Made by a program: the position numbers and the translations under genes. The notes beneath the pieces are model-generated. The model had not been told where the DNA came from. It did no database searches and was given only the letters and a program-made list of their open reading frames with translations. Below are positions 386 through 20,000 of a stretch of 20,000 bases of DNA, in pieces. Position 1 is the stretch's first letter. Each line of letters starts with the position of its first letter. The DNA is taken from positions 174,449-194,448 of the forward strand of contig JALGPX010000002.1 in the NCBI GenBank assembly GCA_023515795.1, in the 5' to 3' direction. This DNA is from Amoeboaphelidium occidentale (lineage: Eukaryota).

Positions 386-2340
386 TCATTTAGATTTACA
401 AGTAATATCTTTGCATAATTCAATCAATAAATTCCATAATTCTGCTTCTTTCAAGTAATATCCTGTCCAGCAGGAGAGAATTTCATTCAGTAGTCTGAAG
501 TGCATGATGCCTTTTGACGAGCTGCGTTTCAGAATGATATCTTTACGAACGTGCCTTGCTAAATATTCATCGCATTCTTTCAACGGTACAGCATGAACAT
601 CATTCTTGTAGAGTATGTTAATCCATCCTTCGTTACTGGATTCTGAAGACCATGAAGGCAGTGGAGTAGGATGAGAAGCACCAAACCAAGGCAAAGGATT
701 TGCAATGCTCAAGAAATATTTCAGCTTCAAACCAGAACCTTTCCCAAAGATCTCTGCAGCAGTGGGAATATTCAACTCGTCTTGTAACTTTCCAAGAGCA
801 AGTGCCGATACAAGTGCTCCTGTTGTGTATGCAATTATCATTACTATTGCGCTTGTATTCCGATATTCATTAGATAAGGAATTCAAAACCTTTTGGAATC
901 CATCATGTATCTTAGTTCGAACATAATGCTCCGCCCAATAAGATAATGCTATAGGAAATCTGCATAGAATTTGATGTCGACCATAGGAATAGATGGAACT
1001 TACAGGATCTAATCCTTTCGTGCGAATCTCATTATCCTTCGACATCAATAAATCATATCGAAGAAGGTGTAGATCAAAAGTAATGTTCTTTTTTGAAGCC
1101 TTCGCTAGCTGTTCCATACTACTACTCAAACCAATTTTTACTTGCTCGATTTCGGAATCGATTTGAGAAGCAGTAGACATTCCATGCACATACACAAAGA
1201 CAAAACGTTGTTCTTTTGCGGCACTATCTGAGATGATCGTTCTGGTATAAACTTTTTCAATCGAAACTGCTTCCTCATCTTTATCCCAAGGTGAAACAGG
1301 CGATCGAAGCATAGGGACTTTTTCATTGAAGTCCATGTTTTCCTTTATCTCAGAGGCCATAGTTTTGTACACATCATCATCGTAGAAATACATAAAATGA
1401 CTAAACGGTGTTATTCGCCCTATGAAAATCAGCAAGAACGTCACCATACTTTTGAATAGCCCAAACAGCACTTGAATAACCGAAAACACACTCACAGACT
1501 TCAGCTTCTTGGTATATTGCGTGATCTCGTTCATATCTGGCATGAATCCAAACTCAACATCTTTCACATGAGCAACTTCCTCACCTTGAACGCTAATACC
1601 ACTCGAGAGAATATCAGAAGTGTAATGAATATTAGTCCAAGGTATCTGAACTTTCCTATGAAATGGCCTAATAGGATGATGCCAATTGACAGCACAACCA
1701 AGGGTGATCAACAGCTTGAACTGTTGCAACAACAAACGCCCTTCCAAAGTGAAACCATCTTGACACTCTGATTGCAAATAATTAGTTAAAAATTCCACAC
1801 CCAGCGTAGCACCCATGCTAAAACCAACCAAAACAAAAGAAATATCATCATCATCGCTACTTTGAGAAGAGTCTTGCATCATTTCCTGTCCAAGTTCGTT
1901 CACAGTTTCAATAACATGATGAAACATATCCTGNNNNNNNNNNNNNNNNNNNNCAAAACAAAAGAAATATCATCATCATCGGTACTTTGAGAAGAGTCTT
2001 GCATCATTTCCTGTCCAAGTTCGTTCACAGTTTCAATAACATGATGAAACATATCCTGTCGAACGCTCTCCGAACCCCAAAACGAAAGGCCCATATTCAG
2101 AACCCTTAAAGGAAGCATTCTAAGGATTGTTTTCCAGTCTAGCCAACTGTACTTGAGTCTTTTACACATTTTTAACTGACGGTCCTCATGCAAGCGAGCA
2201 TAATTAACATACTTCACAACAACCTTCAGGTCTGAGCCTTCAAACTCTTTTCTTATTTGCTTCTCAAAGTGCTTATTAACAATATCAACCTGATCAGCAA
2301 AGCTTAGTCCGTGCAAGAACAAAACACCAATCTGTTTCAT
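386..2340 (-). CDS. Protein with two tandem alpha/beta-hydrolase-like domains; one gene split by an assembly gap
   Basis: ATG at 2340 (MKQIGVLFLHGL). ORFs 1900-2352 and 386-1927 join once the 105-bp duplicate around the N gap is collapsed. Domain 1: LHG, GFSMG, WTNIHYTSD, SHFMYF. Domain 2: VHG, AYTTG, NPLPWF, WINILYKND, WTGYY. Confidence 0.7.
1829..2058. repeat. 105-bp duplicate across a 20-N gap (1829-1933 and 1954-2058); contig-overlap artefact
   Basis: Copies are identical except C1857/G1982 and abut Ns at 1934-1953. Confidence 0.9.
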
Positions 2341-2385
2341 CTCGAAGAGCAAGAAAACATTCGAACTGACAGAGGCATTTTATTT

Positions 2386-2511
2386 AAGCGTACAAGACGC
2401 AGCAAAATATCGCGTATAAAGACGGAAGTACCTCATTGCGCTTTAAGCAAGCAGTGGACCCAGCATCTCTGTGGGGCCAAGACCTTCTGCTAAATCATTT
2501 GGAGCACCAAA
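2386..2511. repeat. Direct repeat copy 1 (126 bp; copy 2 at 4723-4848)
   Basis: AAGCGTACAAGACGC...GGAGCACCAAA; one mismatch (C2487/T4824). Similarity extends about 12 bp further left with an indel. Confidence 0.95.
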
Positions 2512-2712
2512 AATAATACCTCAATCCAGACCTCTAACTTGCCGATCAAGTAGAAATACATCAATATCCGCAAATCAAAAACCCATAGGACACTGGACGG
2601 GGTATATCAGCAAAAAGTTTGATTTGGATTCCGTGGAAATGAAACGAATCGTATTGCACATAAACGCCCAATCAAGTGGACTCTTGTGAAACGGTGCCTT
2701 TGATTTTATTCG

Positions 2713-4509
2713 ATGAATCAACGGCTACCGAAAGAAGGGTTATTGGAATTCTTGCGCAAATTGAAACCAGAACCATCTGATCTAATTGAAGAATTGAACG
2801 CTGATTATGAGTTTACCGTTGGTAAGTGGATAGAGCGCTCAGAAGAAGGCTGGTTGCGACGCTATCCAAACTACGGAGACGACATCTACAATCACATCAA
2901 GGCAAAAATAGGACGACAAGCAGGCTCCGTTCCACCTGATAGTATCGCTCTGGCTGCTGGTATACCACATAACGGATATCTCTTGAGAACTGCTGTTTCT
3001 GCATTAGATCCCGATACAAATGAAGGTGTCCCTGGGACATTCAATACACAAAGAAAGGAACTAGTTGATAGTATTTTACATCTTATGGAACGTAAAGGAT
3101 TGTTCTACATCAGGGCGCCTCCATTCTGCGGGAAAACGGGCCTTTGTCAATTGTTATGCATGCGACTACTCGAAGCCGAGCCTGGTGCCGCTGTTTTACA
3201 TATTAGATGTAATGAATTGGATGAAGGTGAAAGCTTTCGCGAATTTTTCAAAAGAAAGTACAAATGCGCGTGGGAGGATTTTGTGGAACAACCATTCAAA
3301 AAGTATTTGTTGTTGGATGAAGGGCAGTGCACATATGCTGATATCTGGCTGTGGAAAACGCTGTGCAAGAATCAGTTATCACGGATTGAAAAAGGCCTGC
3401 ACTTACTAGTAGCGTCCGCCTATGGTAGCTTTGACTCACTCAGGGCACGAAGGCGTTCCGGAACCCCAATACAAATTCCTGCCCAGAACATGTTTGAGTT
3501 AAAAGATCTTATTTTAAAGAGAACAGAGTTTAATGAGATGGTTTCTGGGAGTCGTTTTGAACAACATTCTGATATAATTTGGCAAGCTTGTGGTGCTCAT
3601 ATAGGTGTAGCTTCAAGAATCTTAATCACGCTTAATCACAACCGCCGGCCTAATGAACAATTTACTCCTAATTACATTGCTAACTGGTTATACTCTGATA
3701 GTATGATCCGCTCGTTGCCTGCACAAAGAGGTTTTATCGATATGCCAGCAGTCGAAACTATCAAAACGATTTATGAGATTTCTGATGCGGCATACTCGCG
3801 AATGCTTAATGTTTTACGAGAGGTAGCTGAAGGCAAAGACGTCCCTACTAAGGATCCTGATCGGTCGCCTGGAAGCAAAGAAGCCGTGACCATTTTGCTG
3901 AAGCATGGGTTTCTATTCGACACATCGGAAGGATTTCTGACATTCGCTTCCAATGCGCACTTGAATTTCTGGTTGGCTTCCTTTCGCACTGATAGCAGCA
4001 TTTGGTTCTTTGATTCTGGTGACATCGTATCATTTGTAGTCGAATCCGTTTCCCGTATGAGCAGGAAGCTATTATCTGACGTTGTTAAAGAAAATCATGG
4101 TCGTAGTCGTGAGAGACAAATCCATGCTGTTTACTATAATGCGGTAACTTCTTTAGTTCCCAAGAAGCACCGAGTGGTTACCGAATGGCAAACTACCGAC
4201 CGTGATGGTTATGTTGACATAGTGATAAGGATCAGCGACTCCGATTTATGGTTCCTGGAGTTGTTGGTTGATGGAGAGCGAGCCCAGCAGCACAATGACC
4301 GCTTTGAATCTTATGGTAATTATTCAAAAGATGTCCAGGCTTACGGTGGAAAGTATGCTCTGATTGATTTTCGCTTAACTACCCGTATTAAAAAAAGAAG
4401 GACGGATTTCGTTTATGTTACGTTTTCAGAGAATTACAAGAATGCGACAATACAGTATGGCACATCTGAATCTAACTCTTCCACCATTACAAGAGAATTG
4501 AATGAATAG
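2713..4509 (+). CDS. Crinkler/RHS-like (CR) protein: short helical header + P-loop NTPase + PD-(D/E)XK restriction-endonuclease-like domain, 598 aa, intronless
   Basis: Walker A APPFCGKT, Walker B LLLDEGQ, ASAYGS...GTP; C-terminal ERQIH...GYVDIVI...WFLELLVDG...H..RF...YALIDFR, typical of fungal CR-NTPase+REase proteins. Confidence 0.8.
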   Translation: MNQRLPKEGLLEFLRKLKPEPSDLIEELNADYEFTVGKWIERSEEGWLRRYPNYGDDIYNHIKAKIGRQAGSVPPDSIALAAGIPHNGYLLRTAVSALDPDTNEGVPGTFNTQRKELVDSILHLMERKGLFYIRAPPFCGKTGLCQLLCMRLLEAEPGAAVLHIRCNELDEGESFREFFKRKYKCAWEDFVEQPFKKYLLLDEGQCTYADIWLWKTLCKNQLSRIEKGLHLLVASAYGSFDSLRARRRSGTPIQIPAQNMFELKDLILKRTEFNEMVSGSRFEQHSDIIWQACGAHIGVASRILITLNHNRRPNEQFTPNYIANWLYSDSMIRSLPAQRGFIDMPAVETIKTIYEISDAAYSRMLNVLREVAEGKDVPTKDPDRSPGSKEAVTILLKHGFLFDTSEGFLTFASNAHLNFWLASFRTDSSIWFFDSGDIVSFVVESVSRMSRKLLSDVVKENHGRSRERQIHAVYYNAVTSLVPKKHRVVTEWQTTDRDGYVDIVIRISDSDLWFLELLVDGERAQQHNDRFESYGNYSKDVQAYGGKYALIDFRLTTRIKKRRTDFVYVTFSENYKNATIQYGTSESNSSTITRELNE

Positions 4510-4722
4510 TAATAAAGAAATATCCAAATGCCATAAACGAAAAGAAACTGACCGATCAAAGACTCTCGCAACACTTGCATGAGAGAACTACATAGAGGGC
4601 TACGGTAATAAGATCTTAAGCTCTATCTGACTACATTTTTTTGAAGTATCAGATGGTAAAGGTTGAATGGCAACTTGGGTGACCGGCGAATCAACGGAGA
4701 ACACCAACAAGGGCATTTATTG

Positions 4723-4848
4723 AAGCGTACAAGACGCAGCAAAATATCGCGTATAAAGACGGAAGTACCTCATTGCGCTTTAAGCAAGCAGTGGACCCAG
4801 CATCTCTGTGGGGCCAAGACCTTTTGCTAAATCATTTGGAGCACCAAA
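4723..4848. repeat. Direct repeat copy 2; the last codons, stop and 3' UTR of the 4780-5568 gene
   Basis: Matches 2386-2511; on the minus strand it encodes FGAPNDLAKGLGPTEMLGPLLA* plus 3' UTR. Confidence 0.95.
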
Positions 4849-5568
4849 CATTTCTTTCAAACTTTTCACACTGAAGTAACTCACGCTCTTGTCTTCTTTC
4901 CGAGGATCATTTGGTGTTTTAACAATATCAAATAATACACCATAACGATTAGAAGTAGAACTGTTGTACCAGTCAGCACGTATTGTGTCCTTCTTTATGA
5001 TCACCACATCCCCGCGATTGTAAGTAACTTTCTCAAGCTTCTTAGTGCTCTTGTTGAACACCACCAAAGTACTTTCTGATTCCAGACCACCGAATACTAC
5101 ATAACCTGCCCTTTTTACGCTGTCACTGTGAAGTCTTTCAGCAAGAGTGCCTGGTGCAGACTCTAGATATGTCAGGGTGTGCTCCCAACCTTCTTCTGCT
5201 GGATACAACTCTTTCATTACAGATACCAACTTATCTAACTTGGGGTAAAGACCCTTTCTATAAACGCTTTCTTCAGAAACATTATAGTAACTTCGGCCAT
5301 GTGGAGGTTGAACAACAATGAAATCTTCTTCATATGGAATTGTGTCTCTTAGATTTAACTACCTTTTGTATGTAGACTCGACCATAGTTCTTAATACCTT
5401 CTTAACCACTATGTAATCCTTGTCGTTCTGTTCAAGATCTTCTATCGCAGGTCTTACTATGTGCACCGCTGATCTCGCCTGGCGCTTCCTATCTCTATCG
5501 TACACTCTCAATGCCACAATTTGCTCTGCCGTTTTATTTCTGTAATTTTTTGATACTCTCTTTGACAT
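4780..5568 (-). CDS. DSBH / 2OG-Fe(II) oxygenase-like protein, interrupted by one in-frame TAG (intron or nonsense)
   Basis: ORFs 5359-5577 and 4780-5229 are the same frame, separated only by TAG at 5361-5359. Motifs ESAPG...LHSD and RGDVVIIKKDTIRA resemble the PhyH-like HxD and GD.hhh.GD.hHA motifs; the distal His is replaced by Arg. Confidence 0.5.
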
Positions 5569-8738: not shown

Positions 8739-9705
8739 ATGGTACGCTTTAATGGACCATCTGAGATTCTAATACGTTCTCTGTAGCCTGGATATTTGCC
8801 TAAAGTTTACAGCAGAAAGAAGAGAGTACGTGCTTTGCTTTAGAGGCCCTGATCGTGTTGCTAATGATGAGCCTTTTATTTCTGACACCTCTTGTTTGAG
8901 TACTGTCGTACAATGAACTTGGCATACCCGGCCTTATGGGGTCTGAGCGCAACACGGCCTCTTTTGTCTGAGGAACTTGATCTAACTTTTGTAGTTTGTC
9001 GCTGATGGTGTCTTCTACGCTGAAGTTAATGAATTCTTCACTCGTGAATTGGCTGAAGACGGTTATGCCGGTGTTGAAGTCAGAGTTACTCCTTCAAGAA
9101 CTGAAATTGTTATCCGTGCTACACGTACTCAGCGTGTTTTGGGTGAAAAGGGTCGTCGTATCCGTGAATTGACCTCTTTGATCCAAAAGAGATTTGGTTT
9201 CGCTGAAGGACAGGTTGAATTATTCGCTGACAGAGTTCTTAACCGTGGTTTGTGTGCTATGGCTCAGGCTGAATCCCTTCGTTACAAATTGTTGGGTGGT
9301 TTGGCTGTTCGTCGTGCTTGCTACGGTGTCTTGCGTTATGTCATGGAATCTGGCGCAAAGGGTTGTGAAGTTGTTGTTTCTGGTAAATTGAGAGGTGCTA
9401 GAGCAAAGTCTATGAAGTTTGTTCAGGGTTTCATGATCCACTCTGGTCAGCCAAAGCGTGACTTCATTGACTACGCTGTCAGACACGTCTTGTTGAGACA
9501 AGGTGTTTTGGGTGTTAAGGTCAAGATCATGAAGGATACTGACGAAGAAGGAAAGGTTGGACCTAAGCATCCTTTACCTGACTCTGTTACCATTTTGGAT
9601 CCAAAGCCAGAAGAGAACTACCAGACTGTTATTCAATCTGAAGATCTAAGTGGAAGCGCTCCTGCTCCTGGTGCCCCAGCTGCTGCTGCTCCTGTTCAGG
9701 TTTAA
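8739..9705 (+). CDS. RPS3: 40S ribosomal protein S3 (uS3); exons 8739-8741, 8787-8825, 8995-9705
   Basis: Spliced product [38 protein letters not shown]...[11 protein letters not shown]...[20 protein letters not shown]. Introns are GTACG...CTAAY...TAG (8742-8786, 8826-8994). Strongly biased codon usage. Confidence 0.97.
8854..8956 (+). ncRNA. Intronic box C/D snoRNA, snR48/SNORD60(U60)-like
   Basis: Box C ATGATGA 8864-8870, box D CTGA 8943-8946, terminal stem CGTGTTGC/GCAACACG. Guide TTTCTGACACCTCTTG (8879-8894) before D' TTGA (8896-8899) is complementary to the conserved LSU rRNA segment GAGGTGTCAGAAA. Confidence 0.85.
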
Positions 9706-10907
9706 ATGAAATAAATGGGGGATTTTCACTTAAAATTTTTTTGTGATATGCAAACTTTTTGCAAAATCGAGCTCACGAAGTTCGAGTTAGCTGGTCAGCG
9801 AGTCCGAGTTAGCTCCTCACGCGAGAAAACGTAATAAAAACACTCGGAAAAGTCCTCTTACCTTCTTTTATTGTTTCTATCGGGCTAACGGTCGATTAAA
9901 ATTATGATATTGCACAATGAACAGCCGTTCAAAGTCACGATTTCGCTGATACTACAGCCCTGAGACGTAACTGGTGACTTGGAACTTCAGATATGCTCCG
10001 ATTTATCAGGCTGAGCTGTTTCAAGGTCATATTGGAGAGATCGAATGTTCTGTGTGGAGTACACGCTATTGGAACCCGACTATAATTTGAAACTCTTTGT
10101 GAAGCCTTGTTTCAGTGAATGTTTCAGGCAAGGACATGCAAGGATGAGAGTGTAATTGGTGTAAAGATGAGTTCTGGTGCCTTTTCATACTCTTTATTGA
10201 TAGGTTGTTTGAATGCGTCTCCGATTTACTGCGTAGAATAGGAAATGGATCAGATCTCCCTTAGGCCAATTTCTACAGATTTTGTCCTAAGAGAAATCTT
10301 TCGATTGGATATATAGAGATTGGAAATTAATGAAACCACTACAGCACGCCCACTACAGGAGTAGCAGGCATTAATGCAAGATGATTTCGACGCACTTTGT
10401 TCAGGGTATGCATGACATTTAAGCTTGAAACTCTTTATTGAATAGATTCTCATTGCATTGCATTCCCCAAAGTACTGTCATTAGCCAGTAAATCAATTGA
10501 AACTTAGTCTTTCGTATTCAATGTAGTCAATTGCACTTCTCGAGTCTCATTTAACCCGCTCTCTAACTTCACGCTCTCCGTCTGACAGATGAAACCAAAT
10601 ACCACCGGATCTTGGTGAAGACGAAATGCGACAAGCGAATACGTTCCGATTCGTCCATTTGGATTAAGTTATAGACATTGACAGACTTGGCACGAAGAAT
10701 GTCTACATTTTCTGTTGGACTCTTTCAGTGATCAGTTTAGCGATTAGGTCAAATATCACACCTCAACACCACTTTAAATTGAATCAACAAGGCTAGTGTA
10801 ACCGGCTTTGAAACGCAAATAAATATCATATTCGTACGTTTCTATCATGCGTCTTTCCTGCTATAGCTTGTTTGGGTGATCTTCGGTTTCAGGCTTGTTT
10901 TGTAACA

Positions 10908-13060
10908 ATGCCTAAAAGGAAGAAAAAGAAAGAGCCGGAAATGGCTTTTAGTACCGTAATCCCTTCTCTAGAAAGTGCCACGGTTGTTTCAATTGATGCT
11001 GCTGATGTTGCTCGTGTGAATGATGAAAGTCCCGAGGAGACCTCTACAAAACGTTGCAAGTCATGCGGTGGGACGGACCATCAAAGAGTTTCGTCATAGA
11101 AAAGCGCCAATTACAAACCTCCAGTTAACATGAGAAGCGTAGATGCGTCCTATGAGTATGCGACGTCTACAATCAAGTTTGGCCTGTTAAAGAATGTCAA
11201 GTCTCAAGATTTTCAAATGAAACTGAAACGTTATGTTGAAAGGATGAACTTAATTAGGATTCATGCATCAAACCTATTTAACTTGTACTTGATAGATATG
11301 TTGGCTGCTGGAAAAAGTATTGGGCTTGTTACAACAGGAAAAGATGGAACCCTGTGCAATTTTTTTGTTGCGGCTACTTGACGCACAAAAGACGTGCATT
11401 CAAATAGTCTGGAGGGTGACTTGGAAAGAATAGTTAGCGATTATGCTTCAATGCTGAAACAGGTTGGTTTTGAATTGCCCAATGGAGACGGGTTGTCACA
11501 ATCAATGGTGCATCTGGCTGGAGAATATGAAACAAGATGCAAAACTTTCGTTTCAACTACTTTGCTCGGCAGAATAGCACGCTGGTTGAAGTTTTTGTTA
11601 GAAACGGCATTGCCAGAGGTGTTCGTGAGCATGGCGCGCAGTAAAAGCGCTGCTGGTTATTTGATAGCTATGTTCATATATGAAATGTCTGATGATCCTA
11701 AAAAAACAAGAACCAACGTTGGCCAAGAAAGTGGTTGAATATTGCAAGAATTACAGTTCGATTGGGTTAATGGGTACAGCATTGGAGCAAGTGTATTGCG
11801 TTTTGAAGCAAAAAAACAGCGGTCATAAGGCTGAGTCTAGAAAAGTTAAAGATCAAGACGAATTGGCACCATTACTTGACGCTACTCTACAAAATTTTGG
11901 ACTTCTTTAGAAACCATCAAAATGAAGATGCTGCTTTCCGCGTTGAAACTCAGCAAAGAGGTAGGCGGCTTAGAACATTTACATTGGCGCCCATCTATCA
12001 AAACCGTAACGGATACGTCAACATTGACACTTCTTGCCTATTTGAAGTGTAACAATTCGAAAAAGAAGACCGACGCGACTGGGGTTTTCCTTTTGATAAG
12101 GACTTGATAGAAAAAGGAAAAACAACACGACAGTACTTTATGGAAACAGCAGAAGCTCGCTGGGGAGAAACAGTTGAGATGAAGCCTTGGTTACCCAAAT
12201 GAATGACATTTGGGTATTCGATGGTAACTGATGGCGTTTCGGTTGAATTTCATGTCATGAAAAAAATCCATGATGGGGACAAAGGTCCCGATGATTTTGG
12301 TTTGAATATGGTGGACGACAAGAAATTTTATGTTCCGGTTGATTTAAAAGATACTGTTGTCATTGGCTTAGACCCTGGGAGGAAAGATTTGTTTGATGCG
12401 TATGATGAAAATGGGTCTTTTGGTTGTTCTGGGGGAGAATGGAGACGATTGTCTGGTATTGAATTCTCTGCGAAGAACGAAAGTTTAGGTTGAGTAAACG
12501 GACTGATATCGGTAAAATCAATGCCGATATGCCTTCTGCAAAGGTAGCCACAGTCCTTGAGTTCAAACAATATTTGAGTTACTTTGCAAAAAATTTGAAT
12601 ACTTCAGTGTCTTTTTACGGATCTCACCAGTGGCGTCTTTCTAAGAAGAACGTGTGACATTCATAAACAATGGGCTTATGATCATTTGATCAAGCGTATC
12701 AAAAGAAGGGGAAAGAAAGTCTTTGTTGCTTTTGGTGGTGGCAAGTTTTCTAGTTGTTCACGTGGTCACGCTCCAATTCCGAAGGTTGGCTTTTACAAAG
12801 CGTTGAAACAAAGAAAGATTCCGTGTAGATACGTTTGGGAATACAATACCAGCAAGATTTGCGCTAAATGTTTCACTGTTCTACCAAAAGGAAGGAAATG
12901 GCGTCTGAAGATTTGCTCGAAGATTACTTGTGGCAGATACTGGAACAGAGACGTGAACGCTGCAAAAGACATGAAGTTCGTATTTACTTTCATGAACAAG
13001 AACAACGGAGAAAGACCAGAACAATTCAAACCAAAACCTACAGAAGCAGGAACAAAATAA
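10908..13060 (+). pseudogene. Fanzor1 (eukaryotic TnpB-family RNA-guided RuvC nuclease), inactivated
   Basis: Stitched frames give PKRKKKK (NLS-like), CKSCGGTDH (Zn knuckle), STIKFGL, WHHYLTLLYKIL, FTLAP...YVNIDT, TDGVSV, RuvC-I IGLDPGRKDL (D 12371), AFGGGKF, RuvC-II WEYNTSKICAKC (E 12839), RuvC-III WNRDVNAA (D 12950). In-frame stops at 11097, 11379, 12050, 12200; frameshifts near 11700, 11760-11860, 12478, 12650. Confidence 0.92.
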
Positions 13061-13264
13061 CAACAACAAAACCGAGGTAACAGAGGGACGCAAGTCCGCT
13101 CAAGACCACAATAGGGACCATGTTACGAACGTTACCTCTGATGTTGATGTAGTTACGGTTGCGTGACTACATTGACTGTTCGTATGTTGAGTCAATTAAA
13201 AGTGAAACGGGAGTCAGATTTACGAGTCTCTTTTGCGTTCTTTCTGATTGAAATCAACAATAAT
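13061..13264 (+). ncRNA. Candidate Fanzor omegaRNA scaffold / element right end
   Basis: Lies directly 3' of the Fanzor stop. Hand-derived stems: 13074-13081/13131-13138; 13147-13157/13162-13172; TTGACT/AGTCAA; 13081-13094/13232-13246; terminal TGAT-TGAA-ATCA. Confidence 0.65.
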
Positions 13265-13295
13265 AGAACCGCAGGACGTTTCTTTGCAACGAAAT

Positions 13296-13407
13296 ATGAC
13301 AGAATTTCCCAAACTTCAAAATGACACCATTTTAAGAGTAATTAAAGGCCAAAAGGTTGAGCAGACCCCGGCATGGATTATGCGCCAGGCTGGTCGTTAT
13401 TTACCGG
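13296..13407 (+). CDS. HEM12: Uroporphyrinogen decarboxylase, first exon only (cut off at N 13433)
   Basis: [37 protein letters not shown] carries the URO-D signature [11 protein letters not shown], followed by a GTAATT donor at 13408. Confidence 0.9.
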
Positions 13408-13433
13408 GTAATTTGAAATTGAAGTCAGGAGCN

Positions 13434-13570
13434 AACGTTACCTCTGATGTTGATGTAGTTACGGTTGCGTGACTACGTTGACTGTTCGTATGTTGAGTCA
13501 ATTAAAAGTGAAACGGGAGTCAGATTTACGAGTCTCTTTTGCGTTCTTTTTGATTGAAATCAACAATAAT
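13434..13570 (+). repeat. Second copy of the Fanzor right end / omegaRNA 3' part (copy 1 at 13128-13264)
   Basis: 137 bp with 2 substitutions (A13171/G13477, C13244/T13550). Starts right after the N and has a different 3' flank. Confidence 0.95.
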
Positions 13571-13577
13571 TCTTCCA

Positions 13578-14741
13578 ATGGCTTCAGCAAAGCGCAAATC
13601 GAAATGGGACGCATTCGATGACGACGCGGAAGAGGAAACGCAGAGCTCCAAACTGACAAGAAAGCCAAAGAAGAGCAAGGAACTTAAGTCCGCGGAGAAG
13701 GCATTAAGCATAGGAAGCGTGTTACAAGCACAACAGTTTCCGGTAGAAAACATAACAAAGACCTCTGATTATTCTCATGTTCAAGAGGTATCAACGGAGT
13801 TCGATTACCTTTCGCAACCTACCAAAGGATTATTTATAAGATCATGTTCTGATGTTACGGAAGAATACGATATCGTTTGCTTAATTCAGGAAGGAACCTT
13901 TGGTGCTGTTTACAAGGCAAAACATCGAGAAACTGGTCAAATAATGGCTTTAAAGAAGATCAAGGATGATGCTAATGAACAGAATGGGTTCCCATTGACA
14001 GCTTTACGTGAAATTACTGCATTGCAACGATTGCAGCACCAAAATGTTGTAACCCTGAGTGAAATCTTGTCTGAAACTGAACAGGATTTGGGAACTATTC
14101 GTTTCTATTTGGCTATGGAATATTTTCCTTATGAGTTGAGGCAATGGGTTCGAGAAAAGATGCCAAAGCTCGATGAAACAGCCTCCAAGTTGCTATTTCG
14201 GCAAGTTCTTCAAGGTCTAGAATTCTTACATTCAAACTATTACATTCACAGAGACATCAAACCTACTAATATTCTTGTTACGGAAGAAGGCACGGTTAAA
14301 TTGGCAGATTTTGGATATGTCAAAAACTACGAAGTTCCAATTAAAGACATGACACCATCTGTAACAACACTTTGGTATCGTGCTCCTGAAATACTATTTG
14401 GTAAAACAGATTATACAGAGAAGATTGATATATTTTCTGCTGGCTGTGTGTATGCTGACATACTTCGTGGTGGCATGCCGCTGTTTGAAGGACAGTCTGA
14501 GATTGACCAAATTAGACAAATATTCACTGTACTTGGAACTCCTTCGGAAAGAGTACTCGCTAAGTATCCTAATGGAACCGATTTTAATTTTACAAAGTAT
14601 TCGTGCACTTTGAAGGATCGGTTACAGGTAGATGTGTCTGATGAATGTCTAGAGTTTCTCATGCTACTTTTGGAGCCAGATTACGACACAAGGCTTTCAG
14701 CGAAGGAAGCCCTGATGCGCCCTTACTTGCAGCTTAAATAA
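13578..14741 (+). CDS. Cyclin-dependent kinase, CDK10/CDK11 (PITSLRE)-like
   Basis: EGTFGAVYKA, ALKK, GFPLTALREI, HRDIKPTN, DFG, TLWYRAPEILFG; first ATG at 13578. Confidence 0.88.
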   Translation: MASAKRKSKWDAFDDDAEEETQSSKLTRKPKKSKELKSAEKALSIGSVLQAQQFPVENITKTSDYSHVQEVSTEFDYLSQPTKGLFIRSCSDVTEEYDIVCLIQEGTFGAVYKAKHRETGQIMALKKIKDDANEQNGFPLTALREITALQRLQHQNVVTLSEILSETEQDLGTIRFYLAMEYFPYELRQWVREKMPKLDETASKLLFRQVLQGLEFLHSNYYIHRDIKPTNILVTEEGTVKLADFGYVKNYEVPIKDMTPSVTTLWYRAPEILFGKTDYTEKIDIFSAGCVYADILRGGMPLFEGQSEIDQIRQIFTVLGTPSERVLAKYPNGTDFNFTKYSCTLKDRLQVDVSDECLEFLMLLLEPDYDTRLSAKEALMRPYLQLK

Positions 14742-14813: not shown

Positions 14814-17800
14814 ATGAAGTTTGGAAAGTTCATCTCGTCGAACGCCATCCCAGAATGGTCTACACAGTATATGAACTACAAGGCCCTGAAGAAAATAATT
14901 GGAGTAGCGGAGAATAAGCCAGAGAAGCATCAATTAACTGTGGCAGCGCAGTCAGTTTCGATGAGCCCGGATTCTAATGCTGCATTGACTGTCGATGGGT
15001 CGCCGATACCGCACAGCTTTGAGGGCGCAAAGACGCATTTCTTCTTCAGAATGGAAAGAGAGTTGGAGAAGGTCAATGCATTTTACTTGCGCAAGGAAGC
15101 AGAGCTGAGATCGAGGTTGAAGAGCTTAGTTGAGAAGAAGTCGTTGTTACTCAGCAGGAAAGGGAAAAGCTACGGAAGTGTATCATTGATTTCCTTGCGC
15201 GATGCTTTGAATGACTTTCAGCACGACTTGTCAAAGTTGCTGCGCTTTGTGGAGTTAAATGAGACTGGATTCAGAAAGATCTTGAAGAAGTGGGACAAGC
15301 GCTCAAAGATGCACACGAAGGAATTGTATTTATCGAGGCAAATTGAAGTTCAGCCCTGTTTCAATCGCGATATTCTTAATGAAATTGGTGACTTGGCCTC
15401 TGTTGCATTGCATGAGCTTGCTGCCCTAGACTCAAACGGAGGAAATGTTCCTTTGTTGAGAGAAGTCCATGAGAGCGAAGATGCGAATTACAACGCAGCG
15501 TCTGTTGAAAATGAACAAGAGAACGCTTTACTTAGAGCCTTGGCAATTGGAGGGTCTGTTTCGCTGTTAAAGGATCTGATCCCGAAAGTTGACATTGAGA
15601 CTGTAAACAGAGTGTTCTGGAAACTTTGCTCCAGAAATGATACCTCTGAAGATTCTGTTGATATTCTTCAGGAGCATTTTAAAATCGAGTTTAATTATTC
15701 TGATGATGTTTCTGATAAGACCTGTGTTCATAATGCTGCTTCAAGTGGAAACCTTGTCTTATTGAAGAAATGTGCTATTGGTGGTGGAAGTATTAAGACT
15801 CAGGATATGTATGGAAGAAGACCTTTGCATTATGCGGCAATGAATGGTCATTATGATTGTTGCAAGTATTTGTTGGATTGTGGTGCTGTTGCAATGGACG
15901 AAGCTTTGTCGCCGTCAAAAATGGCTGACTCTATTGACCATGATGGGTTTAGTCCTTTGCTATATGCGATTATCCAAGGCCACGAGAATGTTGTTGCTTT
16001 GTTATTGGAATCTGGTGCTGTTCTTTCATCTGGAGTTTATTCTCGCAATGTTCCTTTGTGTTTGGCTTGCGAATATGGTCACGTTAAGATCACTGAACTT
16101 TTACTCAAGCAAGGTGTTTTGCTAAGTGTAGCAAACGATTCTGGACTGTATCCAATCCATTTGGCTTGTAAAGAAGGACATGTTGAAATTTTGAAGTTGT
16201 TGTCAAGTCAATCTGCATTTGCGGCCGAAATTGACCGTCGTGACAAGTATAATGGATGGACGCCTTTGTTTTACTGTGCTTCTGAAGGATACTTGGAATG
16301 TGCGAAAATTCTTGTTGATAAAGGCTGCACGACTTTTGTTTTAGATGAGACTAACTGGACTCCTTGGAGTTATTCTCTATGGAATGGTCATGTTCAAACT
16401 GCTGCATTTTTGGAATCTAGTATTACTGTTGAACAAAGAAATGAAGTTGGGTCCCCGTCTAAATTAAGAATGGAATCTCTTGATGAAGCGCTGCCTCCGT
16501 TATCTTTGGATGCAGGTGTTGCAAGCGATTCTGAATTACCCTCGTTGAGCTTGCCTCCTCCAATGATACCCGTCTATGGTCACAATTACTTGGATAGAAA
16601 GGCCGCGATTTATGTGTATTTGGGAAATGTTCAGAGTCCTCTAAAGTCTGCTGTGTCGTTTTACAATACAAAGCAGTTGTCGGTCAGTCTAAACATTTCT
16701 TGCCATTCAAAAAATGGAGCTATTTCTGGTATACCATATATTGTCATTCTTCCATCAGAAGAAAACAATGAAGTGTATAAGTTTACTTTTGATGACCCGA
16801 AAGAATGCTCGATTAACTTTGCTATCTTACCTTCTTTTGGATCCAAAGCTATTGGCAAAGCGTTTGTGTTAGTTAAAGACGCTTTAATGCACTTACATGA
16901 TGTTTCATACAATTCGAATACTGTATCGACAAATGGTCGATTTTCCACAACGCTGCCAATTATAGATTTCAGGTCTAAAGTTGTCGGAGAGATTGCAGTT
17001 GAATTATTTGTTGTGATGCCATTCAGTCATCCAATGATGGATATTGGGCAAGTTGGAACATACTGGAAGTCTTCACATGTTGTTCAAAGCTTTTCACCTG
17101 CTCCTCCAATTGGATCTCCTGCCATGAAAACATTGGGCAGACGACTGATTACAAGCCCAAAGAAAACAAATTCAGCTGCTGGAAACAGCGTCAGTCTTGC
17201 TTCATTGGTCGTAGCAACGTCTCTTTGTCCAAAGAATGCCCATTTGGTTGTACAAGTGACAAAGGATATGATTCCGATTGTTTGCCCAGATTTGTTCATT
17301 GCTGAGAATGGTTTGAAATTGTCTGTATCACAGTTGTCATTCCAACAGTTGAAGGAAGCCCAAGTTGGACGAGAATCGATGTCGGAAAAAGTCCATGACA
17401 TTGGAAGTTACGTCAATGAAGTTTATTCTAATATTATGACTCTTCGGGATGCTTTAGATTATTCAATGGATTTAAATGATGGTGTGCAGATAGAGATTAA
17501 GTATCCATTTTACAATAAGAAAGATGTTCCGATTGTCGGTGTTAGCTTGAATGAAGCTGTCGATGCAACTCTATCCGTTGTATTTGATTACTTGAGTCGT
17601 TGCGCTTCCCTGGATAGCGATTCGAAACGAAGTATTCTTTTTTCATCTGGGAATCCGTTAGTATGCATGGCTGTCAACATGAAACAGCCCAACTTTCCTG
17701 TGTTTTATCAATGTTGTTGCGGTTTCAAGATTGATGATGACTTTGTACCTGTAGAGGAGTTGGACAAGAGGAAAAGGAAAACAGGGTTACATTCACTCGG

Positions 17801-17993
17801 AAGTCTAGGTGCCCCATCGTTCAGGCCAGATTCGCTTAAAGAGGCAGTAAGGTTTGCCAAAAGAGAAGGACTTCTAGGTTTGATGGTCAATAACAAACAC
17901 ATCGAAAAGATACCTATACTATCCCGAACTATCAAAGAGTCTGGCTTGGTATTGTCATTTACTGAAGATGGTCATACTTCAAGCATTCTGTGA
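14814..17993 (+). CDS. PHO81: SPX + ankyrin repeats + degenerate GDPD protein (phosphate-pathway CDK inhibitor Pho81/NUC-2)
   Basis: SPX motifs MKFGK...YMNYKALKK...FVELNETGFRKILKKWDKRSK; ankyrin repeats (GRRPLHYAA, GWTPLFY); LPPPMIPVYGHNYLD and GTYWKS motifs of Pho81/NUC-2; GDPD-like C-terminus. An extra 3' exon cannot be excluded. Confidence 0.88.
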   Translation: MKFGKFISSNAIPEWSTQYMNYKALKKIIGVAENKPEKHQLTVAAQSVSMSPDSNAALTVDGSPIPHSFEGAKTHFFFRMERELEKVNAFYLRKEAELRSRLKSLVEKKSLLLSRKGKSYGSVSLISLRDALNDFQHDLSKLLRFVELNETGFRKILKKWDKRSKMHTKELYLSRQIEVQPCFNRDILNEIGDLASVALHELAALDSNGGNVPLLREVHESEDANYNAASVENEQENALLRALAIGGSVSLLKDLIPKVDIETVNRVFWKLCSRNDTSEDSVDILQEHFKIEFNYSDDVSDKTCVHNAASSGNLVLLKKCAIGGGSIKTQDMYGRRPLHYAAMNGHYDCCKYLLDCGAVAMDEALSPSKMADSIDHDGFSPLLYAIIQGHENVVALLLESGAVLSSGVYSRNVPLCLACEYGHVKITELLLKQGVLLSVANDSGLYPIHLACKEGHVEILKLLSSQSAFAAEIDRRDKYNGWTPLFYCASEGYLECAKILVDKGCTTFVLDETNWTPWSYSLWNGHVQTAAFLESSITVEQRNEVGSPSKLRMESLDEALPPLSLDAGVASDSELPSLSLPPPMIPVYGHNYLDRKAAIYVYLGNVQSPLKSAVSFYNTKQLSVSLNISCHSKNGAISGIPYIVILPSEENNEVYKFTFDDPKECSINFAILPSFGSKAIGKAFVLVKDALMHLHDVSYNSNTVSTNGRFSTTLPIIDFRSKVVGEIAVELFVVMPFSHPMMDIGQVGTYWKSSHVVQSFSPAPPIGSPAMKTLGRRLITSPKKTNSAAGNSVSLASLVVATSLCPKNAHLVVQVTKDMIPIVCPDLFIAENGLKLSVSQLSFQQLKEAQVGRESMSEKVHDIGSYVNEVYSNIMTLRDALDYSMDLNDGVQIEIKYPFYNKKDVPIVGVSLNEAVDATLSVVFDYLSRCASLDSDSKRSILFSSGNPLVCMAVNMKQPNFPVFYQCCCGFKIDDDFVPVEELDKRKRKTGLHSLGSLGAPSFRPDSLKEAVRFAKREGLLGLMVNNKHIEKIPILSRTIKESGLVLSFTEDGHTSSIL

Positions 17994-18575: not shown

Positions 18576-20000
18576 ATGGGCATTAAAGGGTTTAGTGCTT
18601 TTGCCAAGAAACATCAGCTGTTATCTGAGACCATCAATCTCCAAGAGTTCAATGAATTATATAAGAATCACAGGATCTTTGTGGATCTCTATGGCAGTTT
18701 CTATGATCTTATTCGTTATTATGTATTGGATGACAAGTATGAGGCTCTAGTCACTATTTTCAGCAAAATGTCTAGTGATCTAGACGTAACGTTCGTTATC
18801 GATGGCAGCCGGTCCGCTGAGAAGCATAAAACCCATGCTGCAAGAGATCAGCAACGCTTTCTTAAACTGCACTCATTTCAGGACATTATTCATTCTTTTG
18901 ATCCACAGAATAATGTTTCCAAGTCAAAGTGGCGCTCAATGGAAAAGTTCAGATATTCTTGCTTTAGAATTACAGAGCATCACACGAAACAACTATTTCG
19001 CGCACTTGAATCGGCTAATTTGCCAGTAATTCTCGCAAAGTTTGAAGCGGATGTTGAGATCGGGCGTCTAGTTGCGAAATTAAAATCGAATGAGTTATCA
19101 AATACAATAGTTGTTTCTTCGGATTCCGATCTGGTATTTTATGGATGCTCTGTTGTTGCAAAGCCTTTTTTCATGAACAAGTTTGATTGGAAATCTTTGC
19201 GTTTTACTCTCTTTCGAAAAACAATTGCACTTAAAAAGATTGGAATAACCGAAGAGTGTTGGAACGCTTTGGCAGTTGTTGCGGGGAACGATTACGTTTC
19301 CAATTTGAGGGGATTCGGCATTGCGAGATGTTTGAAGGAATTTCAAAAAATTAATGAAAATGGCGCTTGCACTGCTGAAGAAATGGTGGAAACATTTGAG
19401 CAATCGCACGATAAAAAAAGGTCATTTTCAGATTGCCAGTGCAGTGTTTTTGAATTATCAAGAGACAAGTTGTGCGGTCTGTGTTGAAAGTCTTCAAGAG
19501 CAAATGTTTAAAGATTGCTGTAGTCAACTTCAGCTTTTAAAAGAAAAGTACAGAGCTGCCCGCGCCGCAAAGCGTCAAACCACTCAAGGAAGGTCTTTGC
19601 AAGAGCTGAAACATTTAAAATTTCCTTCTCGAAAGAATGCGTTTAGCCCCGTGGTTCATACTCAACTCGGGCGTTATAAAGTGAAAAAGATCGCAAAAAT
19701 TAAATTAACACAATCTGATGTGACTTCGGCTGAAACAATTGCTGGCCCTGTTTCTGTACAATCTTCAACAAGAAAGAAATCTACCAGGAGACAAGGGACG
19801 AAAAAGAAGAAGAAAGCTAGATACTTGAAGTCAGCAAAGCAAACTAGGACCAAGCCTTCTTTAAACCCACATGGTAAACACAAATTGGCTCAAACTACTG
19901 TAGACATGTGCACTCTTAAAAAACAATATCAGATTAAATCATGGCAGCTGGGAACTTTGCGAAGCCAAATCAAGAAGTCTTCCTTGGATACTGAAATTCA
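18576..20000 (+). CDS. PIN (XPG/FEN1-like) nuclease domain protein with long basic extension; frameshift at A7 19413-19419; 3'-truncated by window; candidate PIN-Fanzor fusion
   Basis: MGIKGF, IFVDLYGSFY, FVIDG...EKHKTH..R, FEADVEIG, VSSDSDL, GNDYVSNLRGFG (H3TH). Removing one A gives a frame open to 20000 (KGHFQIASAVFLNYQET...TKKKKKAR...IKSWQLGTLRSQIKKS). Confidence 0.75.

Follow-up and report, generated by a model that had tools for sequence, protein, structure and literature searches.

The locus raises the question of what kind of nuclease gene lies broken between a ribosomal protein gene and a kinase gene of Amoeboaphelidium occidentale, what brought it there and what it may once have done. 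It was analysed within the window, meaning the whole stretch of 20,000 nucleotides taken from contig JALGPX010000002.1. In the explanation favoured here, at a probability of roughly 0.9, a broken Fanzor1 gene sits in a 3.5-kb element between the RPS3 and kinase genes; a transposase from elsewhere probably mobilised this element, whose intact ancestor would have cut alleles lacking it by means of a right-end RNA with the flank as guide.

Three-frame translation from the ATG at 10908 to the stop at 13058-13060 gave a single interrupted gene of 715 codons, with X written at the breaks. A preliminary description of the sequence had stitched together a full-length Fanzor1 of about 715 codons, decayed by at least four stops and about four frameshifts, and both the length and the decay were borne out. 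The features of the gene are:

10908..13060 (+): Fanzor1 pseudo-ORF, 715 codons, four stops and four frameshifts
10914..10931 (+): basic run KRKKKK, resembling a nuclear localisation signal by its sequence motif; also present in the sister copy KAI3658356.1
11055..11105 (+): N-terminal C-x2-C-x4-H-x7-C motif, broken by a stop at 11097 and a Cys-to-Ser change at 11103
12371..12379 (+): RuvC-I Asp in a DPG motif (GLDPG), an invariant column in the homologue alignment
12839..12841 (+): RuvC-II alternative Glu (WEYNTS), followed by six residues and then the first zinc-finger Cys (E-x6-C)
12860..12931 (+): intact C4 zinc finger, CxxC-x14-CxxxxC (Pfam PF07282, E 2e-8, above the cut-off)
12950..12952 (+): RuvC-III Asp (NRD)
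13041..13166 (+): probable ancestral C-terminal tail in a shifted frame (P0001 alignment, X1 deletion), overlapping the predicted omegaRNA

The D-E-D catalytic residues (codons 12371, 12839 and 12950) and the cysteines of the C4 finger are retained, as had been claimed. An alternative Glu six residues ahead of the zinc finger defines Fanzor1 in the account of Yoon 2023 (PMC10711439), and the gene has both this residue and the DPG at RuvC-I. A regular expression for the Bao and Jurka pattern, D-x(125,275)-TS-x2-C4 finger-x(5,50)-RD, also matched. The stricter TnpB-search expression of Yoon did not match the ORF because its second cysteine pair is CxxxxC.

Homology searches gave the same assignment. 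The preliminary description had proposed a profile match of the stitched protein as a check, and against a profile built from 133 homologues the X-joined protein reached 412.6 bits (residues 73-707 of 708), compared with 1.0 bit for the best of 200 shuffles; the homologues had been drawn via a profile containing a sister copy, so this score is not fully independent. The 133 were restricted to proteins of 500-900 aa, without P0001, P0030 and P0013. A profile search returned 8853 relatives at E <=0.001, one of them P0030, the gene model of the locus itself. Profiles of the relatives matched each of the three solved Fanzor1 proteins for the greater part of the length (SpuFz1 E 8e-59, PpFz1 2e-47, GtFz1 2e-47), and positions 21-612 of 644 matched 8GKH, thus including an extended REC/WED N-terminal half like that of the solved Fanzor1 proteins. 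Single-sequence PDB searches gave weak matches only. Four of the five nearest longer proteins are annotated as A. occidentale, the best being 95% identical over the C-terminal piece. On these sequence grounds the gene is confirmed as a decayed Fanzor1. A Fanzor2 gene or a bacterial TnpB contaminant would account for the weak match of TnpB models to the zinc-finger end (E 2e-4, far below cut-off), but Fanzor2 (9B0L) and TnpB were matched at the zinc finger alone, over about 60 positions at E 3e-12 or weaker, and only Fanzor1 structures over the full length. The neighbouring genes are eukaryotic, the FZ1 label is already in print, and a 27-nt right-end pattern had no exact match in prokaryotic genomes, which leaves that origin next to no credibility.

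One element of the preliminary description did not hold, namely a zinc knuckle at the N-terminus. A zinc knuckle (CCHC) has four ligands spaced C-x2-C-x4-H-x4-C. The spacing found here is H-x7-C, with an internal stop and with Ser as the last ligand; in sister copies the stop codon at 11097 is Lys (including KAI3658356.1) and the T read at 11103 restores Cys. The C-x2-C-x4-H-x7-C motif is present in 8 of 134 homologues of at least 550 aa, and no Pfam zinc-knuckle model matched it, either here or in P0015 and P0037.

The stops of the Fanzor1 ORF are at 11097 (TAG), 11379 (TGA), 12050 (TAA) and 12200 (TGA), and the frameshifts near 11700, 11811, 12475 and 12641. The copy at 10908 would encode a peptide of 63 aa, ending at a stop in codon 64. 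An alternative genetic code was ruled out, all three stop codons being represented among the lesions and RPS3 terminating with TAA. Sister copies, which differ by 4-10% in DNA, have sense codons or open frames at 11097, 11700, 12475 and 12641, and Cys at the position of the 11379 stop. The letters of the window at 11097, 12200 and 12641 were found in contigs of run X1 at a depth of 103-120, approximately single-copy (flanking genes 105-108); the assembly may have been made from X1, which is not independent of it. Since the X1 contigs showed solely the in-frame form at 11700 and 12475, these two frameshifts, both in homopolymer A runs, are unconfirmed and could be assembly errors. No listed identical contig spans the stops at 11379 and 12050.

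A fifth frameshift, of 1 nt at 13038-13040, probably shortened the tail, since most other X1 copies are one base shorter there (deletion at 13038 or 13040, depth 265/373) and the tail of P0001 aligns to 13041-13166. The ancestral frame thus probably ran to 13166, giving about 750 codons. Other X1 copies carry indels of their own at 11374, 11813, 12206, 12236 and 12565, an X4 copy carries one at 12260, and no intact sister copy was found among the X1 and X4 contigs covering the element. A match of Rfam IS009 at 11290-11351 (23 bits, cut-off 117) was taken as a chance match.

It is very improbable that the gene is instead intact, as the deposited gene models would have it, with the breaks explained by small introns or by errors of the assembly. 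The models P0001 and P0030 do skip the broken stretches, the organism has introns, and the two A-run frameshifts were without confirmation in X1. Against this, P0006, P0005 and P0012 have conserved coding sequence where the models skip. P0006 is colinear with the ORF through three stops and two frameshifts, with 55% identity over 374 residues and 2 gap positions. X1 contigs carry the stops at 11097 and 12200 as well as the shift at 12641, and the sister copies differ at those codons by point changes.

The Fanzor1 fragment of this locus is already known and is ordinary; new here are the exact element ends and a predicted guide RNA. P0030 is letter for letter the 251-aa KAI3662498.1, the C-terminal model of the locus, which is listed as FZ1 in Supplementary Table 1 of Saito 2023 (PMC10432273), where its span of 858 nt corresponds to 12203-13060, and stands also in Table S2 of Yoon 2023 (PMC10711439). 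The Saito table has 26 A. occidentale rows, at least 21 labelled FZ1 (21 of the 23 rows examined), and the fragment stands among about two dozen A. occidentale relatives in these published Fanzor tables. Among the FZ1 entries, KAI3659908.1 and KAI3658356.1 are sister copies; the sister P0001 is 95% identical over the C-terminal piece. In the portions of the tables consulted, the FZ1 rows are protein fragments with predicted introns over the lesions and without element ends, RNA or pseudogene status. The published entries of the subfamily are thus fragments with false introns over pseudogene lesions, although a dead copy of a catalogued Fanzor1 matters little in itself. None of three terms looked for occurred in the two supplements of Jiang 2023 (PMC10530073). 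No main text was found that has Fanzor and Amoeboaphelidium together, the organism appearing in supplements only, that joins Fanzor with zinc knuckle, or that combines five reconstruction terms. DNA scans for sister copies gave one locus from 62 metagenome stretches and one from 7 viral stretches, both short, weak matches, and the element end patterns had no matches in viral and prokaryotic contigs. Within the annotated Fanzor1 proteins P0007, P0013, P0019 and KAI3658356.1, tandemly duplicated segments or fused copies were seen, either real rearrangement or assembly artefact.

The inserted element extends well past 10908-13060, the span of the preliminary description. Its limits were read from alleles that lack it:

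8995..9705 (+): main exon of ribosomal protein S3 (RPS3), left neighbour (Pfam PF00189, PF07650)
9739..13260 (+): whole inserted element, 3522 bp, from empty-site joints; the left boundary may be one base rightward
13261..13432 (+): stray piece, flank and first exon of uroporphyrinogen decarboxylase (Pfam URO-D; X1 and X3 contigs)
13434..13566 (+): second right-end copy, adjoining the kinase gene, a 99% duplicate whose last stem closes at 13565
13578..14741 (+): protein kinase, right neighbour (Pfam PF00069, E 9e-61)

The kinase is taken by us to be CDK-like on the basis of its motifs. A 2435-nt contig of X3 joins 9738 directly to 13567, and in X8 9738 is joined to 13568 with a single C between; in the empty allele 44 bp separate the RPS3 stop from the kinase ATG. 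Empty alleles were found in two of the four runs compared, from two studies, using metagenome contigs at a likeness of 94 (95 advised). An empty allele at the same locus marks the insertion as a transposon, here probably a non-autonomous one (X3 and X8 joints).

These joints place the right end truly belonging to this copy at the duplicate ending at 13566. A 15.8-kb X1 contig with 13261-13432 runs on for 15.6 kb into sequence absent from the window, and a 38-kb X3 contig holds 13261-13432 without the element upstream. Because these contigs place 13261-13432 at the decarboxylase locus, the stretch comes from another locus, the scaffold has fused two loci at the N at 13433, and the element has a second insertion, 35 nt before the uroporphyrinogen decarboxylase gene. 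The element length is accordingly 3522 bp, since 13261-13432 belongs elsewhere. The N runs at 1934-1953 and 7187 likewise have near-identical sequence on both sides, probably from assembly overlaps.

TAAT follows both right ends, and the left flanks end in ATTT and, from X8, in ACTT plus one base. The empty sites of X8 differ from those of X3 at the insertion-point base itself (C and G versus T; two low-depth contigs only), and these differences are either strain polymorphism or target escape. The insertions end 11 nt (kinase) and 35 nt (decarboxylase) before the host ATG, on the same strand, and the element may supply or displace the host promoter.

The next question is how such an element moves. 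No terminal inverted repeat was found; the best inverted match between the first 20 and the last 60 nt was 6 nt, equalled by 226 of 300 random stretches. The target site duplication is 0-1 bp, so the element lacks the hallmarks of a cut-and-paste transposon with inverted repeats (Spu-1, Mariner). A TA duplication with 4-bp TTGT/ACAA ends would require one changed base at 9740. Upstream of the ORF no Pfam or NCBIfam transposase match was obtained in six frames, in agreement with the earlier remark that no transposase is recognisable nearby, and none of 146 candidates of 145-462 aa for one upstream frame gave a match, although an old dead ORF could have escaped notice.

The closest structural relative by sequence profile is SpuFz1 of the Spu-1 element (PDB 8GKH). 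Both are single-ORF elements with the D-E-D triad and an RNA region at the right end, predicted in our case. Spu-1 is described as having inverted repeats of 30 nt and 19 full-length genomic loci, whereas the A. occidentale element has no such repeats, a longer left part and a broken ORF. The left part has the following features:

9739..10598 (unstranded): left module of about 860 bp, far more repetitive than the Fanzor ORF (X1, X2 and X3 depth)
9749..9763 (+): small predicted DNA hairpin, 10 nt inside the left end
9779..9819 (+): subterminal direct repeat of 22-nt period, two units; loose ends at 9801 in X3 and X8

The summed contig depth in X1, which is not equal to copy number, was 1900-5000 over 9714-10541, 300-680 over the ORF and 105-108 over the flanking genes, and the depth step at about 10540-10600 recurs in X2 and X3. 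Some other copies of the element appear to hold one 22-nt unit instead of two. The predicted fold of the first 162 nt does not stand out from shuffled sequence (z -1.2). Neither Pfam and NCBIfam scans of six upstream frames nor a one-frame homology search gave a family or homologue for the module. In one plus frame, 4 of the 25 variants listed abolish stops and no variant introduces one, while the number of stops in that frame, 13 in 263 codons, is close to random expectation (16.4 +/- 3.8 in shuffles); this is a hint, not significant, of a dead ORF in the module.

The sharp depth step, together with other contigs that exit the sequence at loose ends at 10087 and 10598, would also follow if the left 860 bp were an independent high-copy repeat that had inserted next to, or within the end of, a shorter Fanzor element whose start would lie near 10570-10600. 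We regard this as quite unlikely, as the module and the ORF are jointly absent from both empty alleles. The Fanzor-side contigs of X2 and X3 both begin within the shared part, at 10570, and the module-Fanzor junction therefore recurs in other strains. A similar pairing has also been described for CMe-1A and TE-N2_CMe of Cyanidioschyzon merolae (Bao and Jurka 2013, PMC3627910, section 12). According to that section, CMe-1A is a TIR-less Fanzor1 element of unknown superfamily whose 5' 635 bp are common to another multicopy repeat; the likeness is by description, not by sequence, and CMe-1A differs in its host and in that its target site duplication was undetermined.

With the module taken as part of the element, one speculative and rather doubtful suggestion is that it is the end used in common for mobilisation by an unclassified family of DNA transposons, which would lack TIR and TSD and insert at TT^TA-like sites a short way before host start codons. 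Such a family would have carried many different aphelid Fanzor1 genes, with nuclease and omegaRNA swapped behind one left end. The repetitive module raises a checkable question on what moves TIR-less Fanzor1 elements.

A non-autonomous, rolling-circle transposon of the Helitron2 type, like the Fanzor1-bearing CRe-1/2/3, could be the carrier; such a reading bears on the mobiliser alone and does not conflict with the favoured explanation. The element begins with T at its 5' terminus and has a small hairpin close to it, and a long hairpin on the 3' side stops at the boundary; it is inserted after a T run, with no TIR and a TSD of 0-1 bp. These features, weak ones, agree with Bao and Jurka 2013 section 9 (PMC3627910), where the CRe elements are described as non-autonomous, with a T-rich target, terminal hairpins and no TSD when full length. 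In contrast to them, no asymmetric inverted repeat of 8-15 bp was found in this one decayed copy, the 6-nt match mentioned above being the best, and the copy excess is at the 5' end, not at the 3' end as described for the CRe elements. No Rep/helicase remnant was detected in the upstream frames with Pfam and NCBIfam, and a Helitron2-like mobiliser is considered unlikely.

Whatever its carrier, the favoured reading gives the right end a function in the intact ancestor:

13040..13260 (+): predicted omegaRNA scaffold region, RNA fold z -3.81, 0/200 shuffles as good
13567..13581 (+): right flank, predicted guide from the boundary and the TnpB/Fanzor rule, covering the kinase ATG at 13578

The kinase-linked right end folds similarly (z -3.72, 0/200 shuffles as good), and its final stem closes at 13565, one base before the independently found boundary. 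No Rfam family matched the right end. The fold suggests that the right end is an omegaRNA scaffold with the right flank as its guide, a guide beyond the right boundary being the TnpB/Fanzor rule as given in Yoon 2023 (PMC10711439). The two empty-allele sites read TT then TAAT, or one base different, which points to a T-rich TAM or target. TTTA and TTA are among the TAMs described for tested eukaryotic Fanzors; they fit a T-rich TAM here by analogy and do not prove it. The empty alleles thus give exact ends, and from these a predicted scaffold end, guide and T-rich TAM for a Fanzor1 subfamily of a fungal relative.

By analogy with the known biology of TnpB and Fanzor, on which the proposed mechanism rests, the intact ancestral protein would have entered the nucleus through its basic N-terminus and bound the right-end RNA, with flanking DNA from 13567 onward serving as guide. 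It would then have cut empty alleles beside a T-rich TAM, favouring retention of the element, which was itself probably moved in trans by a transposase from elsewhere. The RNA of the dead copy could still load into the protein of another copy.

Two observations concern X4. One X4 contig exits the window at a GT at 13407-13409 and continues in frame as the decarboxylase would, and X4 is therefore likely spliced RNA. X4 contigs cover the sister Fanzor ORF region at about 10970-13008 and not 10542-10955, a weak hint that a sister Fanzor ORF is transcribed in a related strain.

Elsewhere in the window, a 601-aa ORF at 2704-4509 (+) has no Pfam match; its P-loop-like and restriction-endonuclease-like motifs may indicate a Crinkler-type effector architecture. 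An XPG/PIN-like ORF at 18578-20000 (+) (Pfam XPG_I, E 5e-7) has a frameshift near 19480 and runs off the window. Since some A. occidentale entries in the consulted part of the Saito table, one of them labelled FZ1, show PIN-like-looking N-termini (PMC10432273), this ORF may be a second Fanzor-type element. The ORF at 14814-17993 (+) encodes an ordinary SPX-ankyrin-GDPD protein, Pho81/Gde1-like.
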